From Microthyrium microscopicum (lineage: Eukaryota), in NCBI GenBank assembly GCA_010405405.1, contig MU004232.1, forward strand, positions 1,073,481 to 1,137,480: a stretch of 64,000 nucleotides of DNA, written 5' to 3'. Below the pieces are notes generated by a model that was given only the letters and a program-made list of their open reading frames with translations, was not told the origin of the DNA and did no database searches. This document shows, piece by piece, positions 4,182 to 36,555 of this stretch; position 1 is the first letter of the stretch, and each line of letters begins with the position of its first letter. A program made the translations under genes and the position numbers.

Positions 4182-5368
4182 TATTTGAGCACGGTGATAA
4201 CCGTACCTAAGCTTTCAATCGAGTTTCAATACCACTATGAAGAGTGTCGGGTGTGGTTCCTGCTGTCAATGACTAAAAACCCTCATCTGGAAATTATTCA
4301 TCTTCAGATTTTGTCACTTTAACCACATCGCTCAAATAGGAACTTCTTTCCTAGTCTTATCATGAAAAGTTTTCAAAGCTATCGGAAATTTCAGCTGGGA
4401 TGAGTCTTAAATCCCATTTCTAGTCATGCTTCCCCTTTATCTCCACAGATTATCGGTCCAAGTGTCGAAAATATCACGAAGACTTTGATAGCAACCAGCG
4501 GGAGCGGGCCGATGGCGCGGAATTAAAAGTCACCCATTGAGTCACTTCTGTGCGTTTCTCGCATCTCGATATCCATATTTCAGAACATGTGAACCCAACT
4601 GTTTTCTCCCTGTTTTAAAAACTGGAGTATAGAAAATGGTATTTTCATTACTACCACAGGGGTGAATGGGGTCCAAGCCTCCATTTCAGCCTGATGGCGA
4701 CTGTGGCATTGAATTATGTAGCCTTATGATTGGAATTCTAACCTTCCATAAACTATTGATATCTCTTAGTATAACATCCATGATATTGTACCTATGGCAG
4801 AATGTATACAGCGGATTAGTCGGTGACTGCCCGTTAATGAAGAAAATATGCAACCGATCTCGCTCCAAGCAAAAACCACAAGCTGTCTCCAGACCCAAGT
4901 ACTGCGATATCATTGGCTGAATGCTTCCATTGCACGACACTGAGTCGAAATCGCCTTTGATCTACGCTAAAGGCCATTGGAAAGCGCCGATTCGGTCACT
5001 TATACCCAGTCTATTCCCGAACGATTTTATTTGAATCCGGACGTTTGACGGTGTATTTGTATAGGTTGATGTCGCTGTTGGACGAGGAGTGTTTGAAGCC
5101 AGTATTCTTGTTCTCAAAATTTGAGCGATTCAACTTTGGTAAGCTTTCCTATAAAAATTACATTCAGACACTGAAAGTATTGTTGGCTCCCATCAGAGCT
5201 GATGGTAATCTTCGTATCGCGTGCTGCTGCTTGACGTCTGTGGAAATGCTCCACAGTAATCTTTCAAAGGCTATATAGAAGTATGCTGGCTACTACTATC
5301 ATACCGTTCCAGGAAGAGCCAGTATCGTCTTGCTAATAGTCCATTGCAGGTCGCTCCTGCTGCCCACA

Positions 5369-8300
5369 ATGGCTACTGGAAAGTACTCCGAGAAGGGCGT
5401 TCCTTTCCATCACTCCTCAACCCCTTCACTTCACGAACACGACGCCGAAAAGTCTGAGGACATCGAGCGTCAGCTCTCTCACGGTCATGATTCAGAGATG
5501 TCCAAGAATGGCACTCATGGTAAGAATTCCGCGTGTCAAATCACATATCCTGACGAAAACCAATGGAACCAACAACGTCGCATTTCCCATCGCATGCGAT
5601 GGCTCCCAAGGAAGGCGTTCCTAATTGAGTGCTATGGATCCCACTAGATGCGATGGACCTTTTACAATTTCAGCCGGGAAGGATCAGAGAGTCCTTCAAA
5701 GCGTGTTGGTTCTGTCCGTCATCTCATACTGACTAATTTCAGGTGCTGCCAATACTGACGGCGCCGATCTGCGGCCAATCCATAGTCGAATATCCGCCAT
5801 GGAAGTGGTTACCACGGAGGATCCCTATCGCGAATCCGGCGACGAGATCTATGACAAGTTTTCTTCGAAGCAGAAATGGTAAGTCTTCATCGTATGCCGA
5901 TATTTTGTGTTGGTACCATATCGTGTTATGGCTCCCACAGCACTCGATGGCTGCCATGAAACGCGATGGGATTTCGTGCTGAACGGGTTGAATGGTCTAC
6001 TTCAAAAGAACATTGGCCCCGATCGCATTTGCTGACAGATTTTAGGGTCATGACTGCCGTTCTTTCATATTGTGGCTTCTTGGCTCCAATATCTTCCACA
6101 ACCATATTGTCAGCAGTGCCAGAAGTAGCAGCCGACTTTCACACTTCAGGAACCATAATAGCTGTCTCGAATGCCTTGTATCTCATATTCATGGGACTAA
6201 GCCGTGAGTTCATAATCTGATCCTCCGTATCGAGTGATCCCGTCTGACATAGTGAAGCACTCTTTTGGGGACCCGTGGGCCAGATCTATGGTCGTCGATG
6301 GCCGTGCTTAGTGTCATTGTTGCTCTTCTTCGCCTTCTCCCTAGGAACCGCCCTCTCACCTAATCTCGCCTCCTTCTTCATTTTCCGCGTTCTTACGGCG
6401 TTCCAAGGAACCAGCTTGCTCATCATTGGGGCAAGCTGCATTGGCGACATCTTCAAGCCAGTAGCAAGGGCCACAGCTCTAGGCTGGTTTCTTTCCGGAA
6501 CGCTCGTCGGACCAGCATTCGGCCCCTTTGCTGGCGGTTGCATCATAACATATCGAACCTGGCGGGACATCTTCTGGTTGCAAACCGCTCTTGCCGGTGC
6601 AGGTGTCGTCCTCGTGTTTTTCTTCCTAAAAGAGACCATTCACTACAAGAAATCCACCGAGCTCAAGGGCCTGACGCCCAAGGCATATGCCAAACAGTAC
6701 TGGGTAATATTGCCCCCTACAAAGACACAATATCTTGGTGCTATTGGAAACGCTGCCCATGCTAGTGGTGGCTGCCAGCGCATTGGATGGCTCCCATACG
6801 ATGTGTTCCTGATCGAGTGCTGTGGTTGCCATCGAATGCGGTGGGTGTTTTATGGTTCCACGCCGAGGAGACAAAATGGGTTTTCGCAGCGTGTTAGATC
6901 TGGAGGTAGCCTTATGCTAACAAATTCCAGGAATGGTCCAACCCATGGCGTGTCGTCCGCCTCTTTCGCTATCCGAATCTTATAATAGTCAGCGTGGCAA
7001 GTAGCAGTCTTGTTTTTAACATGTATTCCGCGCTCACGCCGATTCGATACATCCTGAATCCACGGTAAGATTTCCTCGTGCCAAAGCACTTTTTTTGAAG
7101 GCATACGACGAGACCAAAATCCATATCATCTCCCATGGTATTCGATGGCTTTCATAGAATGCGTTCCTGATCGACTGCTATGGCTCCCATCACACTCGAT
7201 AACTCTCCCTTGATAAAACCATTTTGTAATCTTGCACTGACAAAGTAAAGGTTTCATCTAACGACCCCGATGCAATCTGGCTTTATCTACCTGGCTCCAG
7301 GCGCAGGATATCTGCTTGGTACTACCATGGGCGGCCGGTGGGCTGATCGGACGGTCAGACGCTGGATAGCGAAGAGAGGTCATCGGGTTCCAGAAGGTAG
7401 GCTTTTTGAGAATTGCTGTGTCCTTTCGCTCACTTTTGTCTCCAGATCGGCTCCACAGTGCTCTTCCGTTTATGGGAGGCGTTATTCCAGGTAAGGTTTA
7501 CTTGTGCAAAGGATTTTGTATTGATACCATCGCGTGTCATGGCTCCCATAGCACTTCATGGTCGCCTAACCTGCGATGGGATTTCGTGCTCGAAAGCCAA
7601 ATGGTCTTTCCAGCGTGTTGCGCCTGATTGCCACGTTATACTAACGTACTCCAGCGGCCATGTTGGTCTACGGATGGTGTGTCCAAACAGAGTCAGGTGG
7701 CATTGCAGTACCAGTTGTGGCGCTCTTCGTGCAAGGTGTTGCGCAACTCTTCTGCTTTCCGTGTCTGAATGTCTACTGCCTGGTAAGATTTTCCTCGGCC
7801 AAACTACATTTCTTGACGACATCCGATGAAATCAAAAGACATGGTACTCCCATCGTATTCGATGGCTGCCATAGAGGGTGCTTCGTATCGATTGCTATGG
7901 CTCCCATCACACTCGATAACGCTAACAGATTTCAGGACGTGATGCAAGGCCGCAGCAGCGAGGTTGTTGGTAAGTCTCTCCTGCCCCAGTTTCCTTCCAA
8001 TTTCCTAATGTTTGTAGCGGGCAATTACGCAGTCAGGTATTTCTTCGGCGCGATTGGCACAGCAGCTGTCCTTCCAGCTATCCAGAAGATTGGTCCGGGA
8101 GGATTTTCTACTATCTCTGCAGGTTTCCTGTTTGCTGCTACTGGTTTGGTGTACTTGACGGCGAGGTTTGGCAAAGGATGGAGAGAGAAGATCGATAGTG
8201 ATAGAGCTGTGAGAGAGGTAAGATTCACGCCGAAACTGGTGGAGGCTACCAGCACATTCGATGGCTCCCATAACGTTCGTTTCTGATCGAGTGTTATGGT

Positions 8301-8438
8301 ACCCATTGAATGTGATGGGCATTGTTCCGTCTACCACGAAGAGACAAGATGGTCTGTTCAATGTGTGCTGGCTTTGTAGTTGTGGTTTATACTGACAAAT
8401 CCTAGGCTGGGGAGACTGCTCAGGTTGCCGCGTCTTGA
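5369..8438 (+). CDS. MFS DHA1-type (Qdr/Dtr1-like) transporter, 11 exons
   Basis: Introns 5520-5742, 5879-6045, 6204-6257, 6704-6930, 7065-7250, 7397-7445, 7491-7654, 7783-7935, 7970-8017, 8218-8405 are all GT-AG with branch sites; splicing gives one open frame with GPVGQIYGRR, GDIFKPVARATALG, GPAFGPFAGG, WRDIFW, PEDRL. Confidence 0.88.
5587..5656 (+). repeat. Intronic palindromic element, 70-nt type (intron 1)
   Basis: CCATCGCATGCGATGG-CTC-CCAAGGAAGGCGTTCCTAATTGAGTGCTATGG-ATC-CCACTAGATGCGATGG. Confidence 0.9.
5916..5969 (+). repeat. Intronic palindromic element, three-unit type (intron 2)
   Basis: CCATATCGTGTTATGG-CTC-CCACAGCACTCGATGG-CTG-CCATGAAACGCGATGG; 19-nt period. Confidence 0.9.
6775..6844 (+). 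repeat. Intronic palindromic element, 70-nt type (intron 4)
   Basis: CCAGCGCATTGGATGG-CTC-CCATACGATGTGTTCCTGATCGAGTGCTGTGG-TTG-CCATCGAATGCGGTGG; an extra degenerate unit lies just upstream. Confidence 0.9.
7133..7202 (+). repeat. Intronic palindromic element, 70-nt type (intron 5)
   Basis: CCATGGTATTCGATGG-CTT-TCATAGAATGCGTTCCTGATCGACTGCTATGG-CTC-CCATCACACTCGATAA. Confidence 0.9.
7527..7579 (+). repeat. Intronic palindromic element, three-unit type (intron 7)
   Basis: CCATCGCGTGTCATGG-CTC-CCATAGCACTTCATGG-TCG-CCTAACCTGCGATGG, followed by GATTTCGTGCT as in intron 2. Confidence 0.9.
7850..7919 (+). repeat. Intronic palindromic element, 70-nt type (intron 8)
   Basis: CCATCGTATTCGATGG-CTG-CCATAGAGGGTGCTTCGTATCGATTGCTATGG-CTC-CCATCACACTCGATAA. 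Confidence 0.9.
8249..8318 (+). repeat. Intronic palindromic element, 70-nt type (intron 10)
   Basis: CCAGCACATTCGATGG-CTC-CCATAACGTTCGTTTCTGATCGAGTGTTATGG-TAC-CCATTGAATGTGATGG. Confidence 0.9.
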
Positions 8439-8723
8439 TGATGTTCTTGTTTGTTATATGCTTCCGTTCTCTTTTGAATATTTTTTTGGTGGGTACTGTT
8501 TGGGATACTCGTACCTCAGACACCTAGGCAAGTAATGGTAGTTTATTGACACGAGGCCTAGAAGATCCTACAAGTTATTACCAAGTGTATTGTATTAAGA
8601 CTTACTTCCACTTGAATACACCCTATATATGTCTACGCTTCGGCAAGCGCCTTTTATAGTCTGCAAAGCTATCGTACACCCATAAACCAACCACCCCTAC
8701 GCCATGCAATGTAATATACCTAT

Positions 8724-9433
8724 TTAGACAACACGTTTGACCTGGAATAGCCACACCCGTTAGCCAAGCCCATTCACTACCTCAACAGCACACTCATTCT
8801 CACCTCAAAGAAGCGCTTGATCCACCACACCTGAAACGCGCCATTGCCAACTAAGATAATCAGCTGGAACAGACTCCACCACTTAACGCGCGCGTTTGTG
8901 CTCTCCGCCGTATTTCGATGCGTGCGTTCGCGCACTACAATGTATCCTTGCTCGTCCTTCACTTGCGCCATCAATTCGCTGAGATGTCGAACTTCTTGAT
9001 CGAGTGGGTCGGCAGGCGCTTCGTGCTCGGGAACATAGACAATACCGTGAACGTTGAAGGAGACTTCTTTGCTGTTGGCGCTCCAGTGCTCGTTGCTGAA
9101 ACAGTAGATGTATTTGCCGTCTTGGGAGGCTGTGAAGGAGTGGTCGCCGTATTGGACGGAACGTTCGTGGAATTGGTAGCCGCCAGAGGGATTTGTTACC
9201 TGAACGGGTTGTTAGTTTGGCGTGGGAGATAAAGCGGCTAGGTAGTTTACCCAGAAGTCAATGTCGAGGTTACCGCTGCCGCCAAATTCGCGGTCGCCGA
9301 CTTGGAAGGTTACGGTCATCTTGTCGTCGGAGTGGAGTTGTTCGTGGAAGCATTCTCGCGAATGTGCCTTGAGTTGGATGTTATGGGCGGCGGCAAGGCC
9401 TAGAAAGGAGAAGAGGAGCGGTAACAGCAACAT
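8724..9433 (-). CDS. EMP24: p24/GOLD-domain cargo receptor Emp24 (2 introns)
   Basis: Signal peptide MLLLPLLFSFLGLAAA, ECFHEQL, RERTHRNTAESTNARVKWWS, TM segment, C-terminal FFEVKRVV. Confidence 0.92.
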
Positions 9434-9807
9434 GATGATGGTATGGTGGGTGTAGAAGCTTCGCGATGGGGAGAAGATGGAGGATAAATAAAGTTGACAC
9501 TTTTCGATGCGATGCGATGCCCCTTGAACGCACGGACCATCATCATGATCTCGTCTTGAGATTAGACGCCATTGGCTCATACATGGCTAAGTATTGTTAT
9601 TGTTTTATTTGAAAGTCTTGCCATAAGTATTTACTAGACTTGTGAGATTACTTTGGGGAGTTTTTTTTTAAAAGAGAGACCGAATTGTGATTTGTACAAG
9701 TTAGAGAAACTGACAATGCTCTGTGCTTTCATTCGAATATGACCATAGTTCTATACCTCACATATCTGATGCTATCAAACGGGCTTAATGCAGTCATTAC
9801 ATCGTTC

Positions 9808-29371: not shown

Positions 29372-29535
29372 CTGTTCCTTGGTGTTCAAAAAGCTATTCA
29401 TCAACTGGACTATCCATATCGGCCTCGCTCATTTCCTCATGTTCAGAATGCTAGTCATCGAGTGGACTATCCATATCACCCTGGTTTGTTTCCTCATGTT
29501 CAGAAGGCTATTCATCGCCAGGATAACCCATATCG
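29372..29535. repeat. About three tandem 57-bp repeats overlapping the ATG18 stop codon
   Basis: CTA(T/G)TCATC recurs at 29394, 29451, 29508; TGGACTATCCATATC and TTTCCTCATGTTCAGAA each occur twice. Confidence 0.85.
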
Positions 29536-35049: not shown

Positions 35050-35698
35050 GTCACTATAACATTAAACAATCACCAACTTCGCATTCACTGTCAGAACCTA
35101 TGGATGCAAGCTTTGCGCTCTCGCCAGAACTTCATTTTGACCATTTCGACCATGAGATGTAGTTATTCCAATGACGAAATCTGGTGTCTGGACTTCATAC
35201 CACGTCAACCTGGTAAATCTGGGTTCTTTGTGGACCTAGCGGCATGATGCTTTTAAGGCAGGTACACGATGAGGAAGAAAATTTATGTCAACTCGCCATG
35301 TTCATAGCCGCAAGTGCGTGCCTTAAGTTACATGGTCTAGCTTGAGTGGACATTATGACTTTGTGTTCTCTTGGTTGAAAATCCTTCCAATCATTGACTT
35401 GCCTACAAATGCTGCGTAGCCATCTCAGGAACGGCACAATGGACATGATCAGTGCGTTGACAAGATTCTTCACCATGGCCATCCCTTACAACATGTTCAC
35501 ACGATGCAAATGGAGTAGTTGGAAAGCCAGAAAACGAGTATCACAGCATCAACGAGCATGCAGATTCCTCCTTTGTTCAAAATGCATATGTGAGCTTCGC
35601 GAATACGGGCGAATCTGAACAAATTACAGGAATTTTGCGGCATGTCGTTTGTATGGAAGATGTTAGCCATCAATCTTCATGGAAGAACGATGACAACT

Positions 35699-35910
35699 CA
35701 ACCGATGGACAAAATGACTGGCGTGCCCCAATCACGTCCAATGGCTCCCACCAACGCTTTCAAACAGCACATACTATAATTTCCATCAAAATCCATCGAT
35801 AGAGGTGGAACAAACGTAGTCCCTGGGAAATAAAGCACTCGATAACAAAGCGTGGCAGATGGAGCCATAGAAGTCGATGGGAGCACGCCAGTTATTTTGT
35901 CCTTCGGTTG
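35699..35910. mobile_element. MITE-like element with about 60-bp imperfect terminal inverted repeats
   Basis: Left CAACCGATGGACAAAATGACTGGCGTGC versus reverse complement of right end CAACCGAAGGACAAAATAACTGGCGTGC; flanked by direct repeat ACAACT (35693-35698, 35911-35916); non-coding. Confidence 0.72.
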
Positions 35911-36555
35911 ACAACTTTATCTGCTATCTTCATTCTCTTTGAGAGCGACGAAAACCTCGAGCCGGTGATCAATCAGGCACCAGGTGCCGATAAGTAGTGG
36001 AACCGTCGCTAGCGAGCTGCATCTGCCTTCGATTTTGCATCAACTTTTTTGTTACACGACATAATTGAAAATGCTTGATTTTCAGATTGCCATGACTGGC
36101 AGTGGATCTTCAGATAGAAACACTTCGCTCGTGCTTCAACAACGTCAAAAGTGGCTGCTATATGGATCCTACACGTTTTCAAACGCCTCCAGGCAGCGAA
36201 CATATGAAACACTACACAGTACGATCACTACAGAAACTACTTCGTGTTGTCTGTATGTTTTCTGAACTACAAATGTCGTTGTATAGGCGACACGGCTAAG
36301 AACATGGCAGCCTGAGGACATATCTCCACATCTGCCGTTGATATAATGCTCAATCCGTACACTCACAGCTCGTGCTACTTCTCTGTGGCAATATCGGACG
36401 TCAACAAAGATAAACAAATTAGCATTATCCTGGCTAGACCTTAAACAGTGATCATTGAGGCCTCACCCACAGCATTATGGCATATAAGACGCCGGCTGTC
36501 TTTCAAATCTTGGCATCATATTGCTCGCAGTGATTTTGTCTCTCCTTTAGATTCG

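Follow-up and report, generated by a model that had tools for sequence, protein, structure and literature searches.

Seven long introns in one transporter gene of Microthyrium microscopicum are probably diverged copies of a single intron

How new introns come about is a long-standing question. The best-documented routes of intron gain are dispersed families of introners or introner-like elements (ILEs) and transposon insertions; intron transposition by reverse splicing is largely hypothetical. ILEs of Dothideomycete fungi were reportedly the subject of work by van der Burgt in 2012, and transposon-derived introners that of Huff in 2016. Here, we have analysed a stretch of 64,000 nucleotides from Microthyrium microscopicum (contig MU004232.1; the whole stretch is referred to below as the window, and all positions are counted from its first letter), in which a gene for a major facilitator superfamily (MFS) transporter carries ten coding introns (I1 to I10) plus one intron in the 5' untranslated region (5'UTR; I0). 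Judged from their sequences, seven of the coding introns (I1, I2, I4, I5, I7, I8 and I10) are diverged copies of one ancestral intron of ~225 nt, and on balance we favor the reading that one intron was copied repeatedly within this one gene, probably through RNA by reverse splicing. The gene would then be a rare natural record of an intron multiplying in its own gene.

The closest described systems are compared here as they are set out in the available parts of the respective papers. By definition, ILEs occur in tens to hundreds of copies in unrelated genes (PMC3609843, PMC4457414). They are about twice as long as regular introns and have a lower predicted free energy, and profile searches more than double the number of family members. 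The long introns of the transporter gene share with ILEs the Dothideomycete host, homology over the whole intron, canonical splice signals, a length greater than that of regular introns and a predicted hairpin, as well as gained positions, the lack of target-site duplications and the decay of both sequence and length (PMC3609843). They differ in that ILEs are spread over many unrelated genes, whereas every full-length copy in the window lies in one gene, in that at most two ILEs per gene are reported, compared with seven or eight introns here, and in that the present copies are old (Kimura two-parameter [K2P] distances of 0.3-0.75) yet still long. In its strict sense the label "introner-like" needs many copies in unrelated genes, and here the copies are seen in one gene within 64 kb. 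Same-gene intron duplications (SGDs) resemble the present case in that similar introns are confined to one gene (here, within the window), but they have normal length and folding energy and are rare, with at most 16 members per species (PMC3609843), whereas the transporter gene holds seven or eight members of three to four times normal length with a conserved hairpin. In one SGD subtype a segmental duplication includes the flanking exon, which is not the case here, since self-blastn returns intron-intron pairs only; where exons are not duplicated, as in half of the SGDs, the introns are suggested to have transposed inside one transcript (PMC3609843).

The symmetrical sister (stw)introns of Hypoxylaceae, like the introns described here, have proliferated, show inverted-repeat symmetry and are integrated seamlessly at new positions without flanking duplications; their insertion is non-random, with three genes holding two copies, and a hairpin is proposed by the authors to protect or position the excised RNA (PMC8469720). 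These introns, however, have terminal inverted repeats of 45-55 nt, include many donor-split twin introns and occupy dozens of genes, whereas in the transporter gene the palindrome is internal, leader and trailer are asymmetric, and a single gene holds the copies. Transposon-derived introners (PMC9860276, PMC12130899) also show similarity that reaches both intron borders and not the exons, together with a palindromic part like that of a miniature inverted-repeat transposable element (MITE), but in the present case the intron ends lack terminal inverted repeats, target-site duplications are missing, and the copies are not spread over at least four unrelated genes of the window. In the literature searched, as far as the available parts of those papers go, no report was found of seven or eight family introns in one gene.

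The transporter gene lies on the + strand, with ATG at 5369 and the stop codon at 8436-8438, and yields an open spliced frame of 536 aa in which exon 4 matches Pfam MFS_1 (E 7e-23). Its introns interrupt the coding sequence in mixed phases. The only database protein with 100% identity is a public model, here called P0001 (467 aa, listed by NCBI as a Microthyrium microscopicum transporter); "RNA joint" below means a joint in contigs of one public run, here called X1. The gene and its introns are as follows.

5369..8438, + strand: coding part of the MFS transporter gene, 11 coding exons and 10 coding introns (open frame, Pfam MFS_1, identity to P0001)
5139..5349, + strand: I0, 5'UTR intron, 211 nt, probably a degenerate eighth family member (GT..AG joint in a run X1 contig; holds TGGCTCCCATCAGAGCTGATGG and an I8-like stretch)
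5520..5742, + strand: I1, family intron of the full-length type, 223 nt, phase 1 (full-length profile match, E 5e-58; GTAAGA..CTGAC..CAG)
5879..6045, + strand: I2, family intron of the short-core type, 167 nt, phase 2 (RNA joint; 81% identity to I7 over 79 nt)
6204..6257, + strand: I3, short unrelated intron, 54 nt (RNA joint; z <2 against the family)
6704..6930, + strand: I4, family intron of the full-length type, 227 nt, phase 0 (RNA joint; 75% identity to I10 over 118 nt)
7065..7250, + strand: I5, family intron, 186 nt, phase 2 (RNA joint; 79% identity to I8 over 144 nt)
7397..7445, + strand: I6, short unrelated intron, 49 nt (RNA joint; z <2 against all other introns)
7491..7654, + strand: I7, family intron of the short-core type, 164 nt, phase 1 (excised in the P0001 model; homologs continuous at the site)
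7783..7935, + strand: I8, family intron, 153 nt, phase 0, in frame and stop-free with 51 open codons (excised in the P0001 model)
7970..8017, + strand: I9, short unrelated intron, 48 nt, at an old shared position (RNA joint; ~15 homolog loci with a break at aa 459)
8218..8405, + strand: I10, family intron with a deletion in the 5' leader, 188 nt, phase 0 (RNA joint; best-kept hairpin)

Residues 97-536 of the 536-aa model are identical to residues 28-467 of P0001, and I3 to I10 are excised at the same borders in both. Residues 1-27 of P0001 are translated from within I2, with the start at 5966 and the last 80 nt of the intron (5966-6045) taken as coding. In homologs, the motif GDEIYDKF..K..TAVLS spans the I2 site, and this alignment and the RNA joints lead us to the 536-aa model with two extra upstream exons. 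The protein is colinear with homologs of normal length and has no internal repeats.

A preliminary description of this DNA, made from its letters, had sorted the coding introns into two size classes and had seen similarity among the long ones that extends beyond a common core. Both observations agree with the gene model: the seven long introns measure 153-227 nt, some three to four times the 48-54 nt of the short introns I3, I6 and I9 of the same gene, and all seven align end to end from the 5' splice site to the branch point (alignment A1). A profile of the seven matches each of them over all or nearly all of model positions 1-224 (E 5e-58 to 7e-31), blastn pairs begin at most 1 nt from the donor (for example, 7064-7206 against 7782-7923), and leader and trailer are common to the copies, as is the core (repeat families D2, D3 and D5). 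When each pair was compared with 100 shuffles after removal of the splice signals (8 nt trimmed from the 5' end, 25 nt from the 3' end), all 21 pairs among the seven long introns stood out (z 3.6-38.9), and every pair involving I3, I6 or I9 stayed at z <2. The two short introns I3 and I6 could be fully decayed members of the family or separate gains. The 5'UTR intron I0, absent from the preliminary description, reaches z 6.4 against I8 and z 0.9-3.6 against the other six; taken alone against the seven-intron profile it is not significant (E 0.39), and its sequence suggests that it is probably a degenerate eighth member.

The arrangement CCAT-N8-ATGG, which had been described for all seven long introns, is present as an exact copy in six of them, I4 holding one-mismatch versions only. 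The window contains it 13 times (expected, 1.09), a count that none of 100 shuffles reached, and 9 of the 13 lie within 5190-8318; similarly, GGCTCCCA has 11 occurrences in the window, 8 of them inside the transporter gene. The strings that had been quoted as common to particular introns were all found again, namely, the start of I5 and I8 together with ATGGCTCCCATCACACTCGATAAC, GCGATGGGATTTCGTGCT in I2 and I7, AGCGTGTT in I1, I4 and I7, and GAGACAA.ATGG in I4 and I10. Three subtypes can be distinguished: the full-length introns I1, I4 and I10 (the last with its leader deletion), I2 and I7, in which the hairpin apex is deleted (81% identity over 79 nt), and I5 and I8, with a shortened trailer (79% identity over 144 nt). 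The K2P distances are 0.30 for I5-I8, 0.39 for I4-I10, 0.46 for I2-I7 and 0.5-0.75 for most other pairs, and by this measure the nearest relative of every family intron is another intron of the same gene. Since these distances are large, the family is old.

The extent of the copied unit follows from where the homology stops, which is at the exon borders. As the preliminary description had held, the flanking exons are not repeats of one another, and within this gene self-blastn detected no exon-exon similarity. Target-site duplications were not found either: the 5' and 3' junctions of the same intron share words of 3-5 nt, and those of mismatched pairs share 3.9 nt on average. The upstream exon ends in G in all eight cases, and the downstream exon begins with G in seven of the eight. 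On this sequence evidence, the copied unit is the intron in its entirety, with the splice sites as its limits, and not just the hairpin or a segment that took in exon sequence; limits of this kind suggest an RNA intermediate.

To place the introns in evolutionary context, the 536-aa model was compared by tblastn with 52 fungal homolog loci from metagenome contigs (34 clusters at 95% identity; exon 4 identity of 44-72%), and a break between high-scoring segment pairs (HSPs) or an insertion of at least 8 aa was taken as the sign of an intron. No such break or insertion was observed at the I1-I8 or I10 sites in any locus covering them, the number of loci aligned without interruption being 20 at I1, 45 at I2, 46 at I3, 48 at I4, 47 at I5, 44 at I6, 44 at I7, 43 at I8 and 3 at I10. 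By the rule put forward in the preliminary description, in which a new position means gain, I2, I4, I5, I7 and I8 are at new positions, with an intron in 0/45, 0/48, 0/47, 0/44 and 0/43 loci, respectively. The sites of I3 and I6 are likewise intron-free in the homologs (0/46 and 0/44), leaving I9 alone at a shared position. For I9, an HSP break at aa 459 is seen in ~15 loci, and in the six loci inspected the intervening stretch starts with GT (GC in locus L028) at the same spot in the codon context GTT G|GT, so that the phase is common to the homolog introns. As far as the sequences of the sampled relatives indicate, the short intron I9 appears to be ancestral, and the family introns are at positions unseen in those relatives. 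In the closest locus (L001), no interruption occurs from aa 38 to 387. The uninterrupted loci include contigs of 86, 89 and 565 kb and are therefore genomic DNA, and many homologs are intronless over the whole protein. Some homologs (L021-L051) contain other introns, near aa 164, 218, 226-240, 320 and 365, none of which is present in this gene; given these homolog-specific introns and the many intronless homologs, the intron map of this transporter family is very fluid. Taking homology and position together, we consider it very probable that the long introns are whole-intron paralogs gained at new positions.

All eight family introns carry the splice signals GTAAG/GTAAT..CTRAC..YAG; every copy brings a complete set of signals (GTAAG donor, CTRAC branch point, YAG acceptor) and so is removed by the spliceosome. 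The proposed junctions were borne out by exact GT..AG joints in run X1 for 8 of the 11 introns (I0, I2, I3, I4, I5, I6, I9 and I10), among them 5 of the 8 element-bearing ones (I0, I2, I4, I5 and I10), and none is listed for I1, I7 or I8. Unspliced contigs are also present over I0, I2, I4 and I5. One bin within I7 (7494-7607) has no coverage, so the run says nothing on this intron; both I7 and I8 are excised in the P0001 model, and at these sites all homologs have a continuous protein. The case for I1 is made by its full-length family membership, by the continuity of the frame and by weak N-terminal motifs, the homologs carrying the exon 1 and exon 2 motifs in one uninterrupted frame. If I8 were retained, the protein would gain 51 residues, placed between YCL and DVMQ. 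A protein search for read-through copies, with the open translation of I8 as query, gave three candidates, none with E up to 10, a result that says nothing on the presence of other copies.

Within the window, the family is restricted to this gene. The possibility that the motif is scattered evenly, with no enrichment in the transporter gene, is at odds with the nhmmer search, in which the profile of the seven introns found no further full-length copy in the 64 kb with its ~20 other genes; the only other match is weak (35811-35909, E 8.7e-5), and the 252 kb of homolog loci gave none. The other genes of the window are mostly long uninterrupted frames, such as a 1477-aa open reading frame for Trs120. 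A published screen lists no introner family for Microthyrium microscopicum in its Dataset S1 (PMC12130899); as described there, the screen is based on blast similarity and keeps only families with at least four members in different paralogy groups, which makes the published zero a weak negative, and under the same four-group rule a one-gene family would be dropped by the pipeline. Because copies in unrelated genes are required, introner screens miss one-gene families and would, as far as their design is described, discard an intron gain of the present kind. The principal proposal of the preliminary description, that one intron spread repeatedly within a single gene, has thus held up on four points: whole-intron homology, new positions, RNA junctions and no other full-length copy in the window.

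The anatomy of the unit can be read from the consensus, which runs from the donor GTAAGATTTCC and the leader through an internal imperfect hairpin to a trailer with AGCGTGTTGG and then TTATACTGAC-N-YAG. The ancestral intron has a leader of ~65 nt, a hairpin of ~77 nt made of alternating CCAT/ATGG blocks, a trailer of ~60 nt, and the branch point with the 3' splice site. In the individual long introns the hairpin is about 60-77 nt, internal and imperfect, and its cores (repeat family D1) are located as follows.

5584..5660, + strand: hairpin core of I1
5913..5972, + strand: hairpin core of I2
6772..6848, + strand: hairpin core of I4
7130..7206, + strand: hairpin core of I5
7524..7583, + strand: hairpin core of I7
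7847..7923, + strand: hairpin core of I8
8246..8322, + strand: hairpin core of I10

RNAalifold gives a consensus hairpin of 19 pairs in alignment columns 72-141 of 231, with 86% of the cells paired. The pairing is confined to this core, the leader (~65 nt) and the trailer (about 60-85 nt) not being mutually complementary. The core of I10 folds best (-36.3 kcal/mol, z -6.86, with 0 of 200 shuffles folding equally well), and the core z-scores form a graded decay series from I10 (-6.9) through I4 (-3.5), I7 (-2.9), I8 (-2.5) and I2 (-2.4) to I1 (-1.3) and I5 (-1.1). Folds of whole introns lie at z -0.6 to -2.9 against mononucleotide shuffles, and for five of the seven long introns (z -0.6 to -1.2) they are no better than the shuffles. 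The stem is the best-conserved part of the introns: mean pairwise identity is 0.78 in the stem, 0.62 in the loop and inter-stem parts, 0.50 in the leader, 0.52 in the trailer and 0.66 at the splice ends (stem against flanks, Mann-Whitney p 3.5e-8). An Rfam scan of 5000-8600 at E up to 1 returned no match, so that no known small nucleolar RNA or other RNA family lies in these introns.

The weak profile match mentioned above falls on an intergenic palindrome.

35698..35911, no strand assigned: MITE-like palindrome, 214 nt, between the LCM/Kelch/JmjC gene and the multicopper oxidase gene

Its arms of ~60 nt pair with each other, CAAC stands on both flanks, and the 241-nt stretch 35690-35930 over it folds at -105 kcal/mol. 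Positions 39-138 of the intron profile align to the left arm from its terminus, at E 8.7e-5, with weak similarity over ~100 nt. In pairwise local alignment, only I5 and I8 are clearly above shuffles (z 6.8 and 6.3; the others z <=3.9), and the longer relationship between palindrome and introns consequently depends on the profile match. In the 252 kb of homolog loci, the palindrome finds only a 14-nt chance match. The resemblance is a weak but real sign, at the level of sequence, that the hairpin part of the founder intron may have come from a MITE-like element. The leader and trailer lie outside that element yet are common to the copies, and therefore the intron, not the transposon, is the unit that was multiplied.

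How a whole intron could multiply in its own gene can be outlined as follows. The excised intron RNA would enter the same transcript at another G|G site, or the transcribed DNA of the same locus, by reverse splicing; reverse transcription would come next, and recombination would then fix the new copy. Several rounds may have taken place, in which the full-length type (I1, I4 and I10) would have come first. Two types would have arisen later, one whose hairpin lacks the apex (I2 and I7) and one whose trailer is shorter (I5 and I8), and each would have been copied once more. The hairpin probably goes back to a palindromic, MITE-like transposon inserted into the founder intron. Folding out the middle of these unusually long introns, or stabilizing the excised RNA, may be the reason why the hairpin was kept. 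Uninterrupted homologs, the lack of exon or target-site duplication, and borders at the splice sites are a pattern predicted by reverse splicing and hard to obtain via DNA transposition; nevertheless, an RNA-mediated path in cis, taken as a claim of its own, has in our estimate slightly less than an even chance. More tentative still is the general proposal that a spliceosomal intron can propagate in cis, its hairpin-stabilized RNA being reverse-spliced into its own gene, so that seven or eight copies accrue while the rest of the genome stays free and the hairpin serves as a module for copying, for the splicing of long introns or for both.

Several observations weigh against the reading that one intron was copied repeatedly within the gene, probably through RNA: (i) recombination mediated by cDNA is expected to erase neighboring introns, and contrary to this expectation eleven introns coexist in the gene; (ii) an origin at the DNA level is conceivable, given that the palindromic core suggests a DNA transposon at some stage of the family's past; (iii) the sequence distances (K2P 0.3-0.75) indicate old copies and no recent burst; (iv) covariation in the stem is not significant, since 42/500 and 81/500 shuffles reach the observed values and the covariation term of RNAalifold is +1.98, and the conservation of the stem could partly result from better alignment of the core; (v) the search for copies spans the window and the homolog loci, so that copies in unrelated genes may exist elsewhere in the genome; (vi) the loci compared are homologs and may not be orthologs, any timing and order of the gains is tentative, and coverage is thin at the I1 (20 loci) and I10 (3 loci) sites; (vii) the label of run X1 as RNA is a guess, the shorter side measures only 27-30 nt in six of the eight joints, I1 is retained in a contig covering 5349-5879 with no I1 joint listed, and a 1400-nt contig retains I8, again with no joint listed, yet splices I9 and I10.

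The most serious competitor as to the source of the copies is a genome-wide ILE or transposon-type introner family that hit this gene repeatedly, for instance because a MITE-like DNA element hopped locally; insertions in exons would then have survived only if they were sense-oriented and spliceable. Introns three to four times longer than the short ones of the gene, with a hairpin and at new positions, are what is described for ILEs (PMC3609843), and a weakly related palindrome with 4-nt flanking repeats does exist elsewhere in the window. However, the 64 kb with their ~20 genes hold no other full-length copy, the nearest relative of each copy is in the same gene, and the published screen lists no introner family for the species (PMC12130899). 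The repeat unit moreover ends at the splice sites, with the palindrome 65-70 nt inside the intron, target-site duplications are missing, and the fungal reports, so far as available, give at most two family members per gene. We therefore regard this explanation as unlikely. If the family were genome-wide after all, the gene would be no more than an unusual hotspot, the ILE family itself being ordinary, in a lineage of Dothideomycetes for which none is listed. A transposon could also have entered the scene later, a MITE or other repeat having inserted secondarily into seven unrelated, pre-existing introns; the core is palindromic and resembles the intergenic MITE-like element, and cases of this kind are described for three other fungi (PMC3609843). 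Here, though, leader and trailer are included in the similarity, which extends from the donor to the branch point, introns are absent from every homolog at five of the sites, the cores lack flanking target-site duplications, and all copies, including their non-palindromic flanks, have the same orientation. Because the similarity reaches donor and branch point and the positions are new, secondary insertion is very unlikely.

Intragenic segmental duplication that included exon sequence accounts for half of the published same-gene intron duplications (PMC3609843), but in this gene the protein is colinear with normal-length homologs and free of repeats, and the related pairs are irregularly spaced (aa 96/405, 342/448 and 297/526); the lack of exon-exon similarity in self-blastn excludes it. 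Gene conversion homogenizing pre-existing introns would still require introns at positions that no homolog has, and taken together these two routes are given the smallest chance of all. A further explanation, the second option of the preliminary description, concerns the persistence of the copies and is compatible with copying by descent: the CCAT/ATGG hairpin may be a selected cis-element, acting in the control of intron retention, as an aid to the splicing of long introns or through small RNAs. In its favor, stem identity is 0.78 against ~0.51 in the flanks among copies that otherwise stand at K2P 0.3-0.75, and the lengths have been kept at 153-227 nt, whereas ILEs shrink towards normal length (PMC3609843); contigs retain I1 and I8, unspliced I0, I2, I4 and I5 coexist with spliced forms, and I8 is in frame and stop-free. 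The covariation, however, is not significant, the cores of I1 (z -1.3) and I5 (z -1.1) fold no better than shuffles, Rfam has no match, and the quality of the alignment may inflate the contrast between stem and flanks, so that we consider selection on the hairpin possible but doubtful. Whatever has maintained it, the locus provides a series of older and younger copies with a conserved hairpin in which splicing, RNA stability and copying can be addressed.

Elsewhere in the window, a tandem-like direct repeat of 95 nt (29383-29534; 80% identity, offset of 57 nt) adjoins the PROPPIN/WD40 gene. Downstream of the transporter gene, a convergent emp24/p24 gene on the - strand (8780-9586) begins ~340 nt beyond the transporter stop codon; the 1400-nt contig of run X1 starts at 7650 and extends past 8500, and the 3' ends of the two genes may therefore overlap in transcripts.

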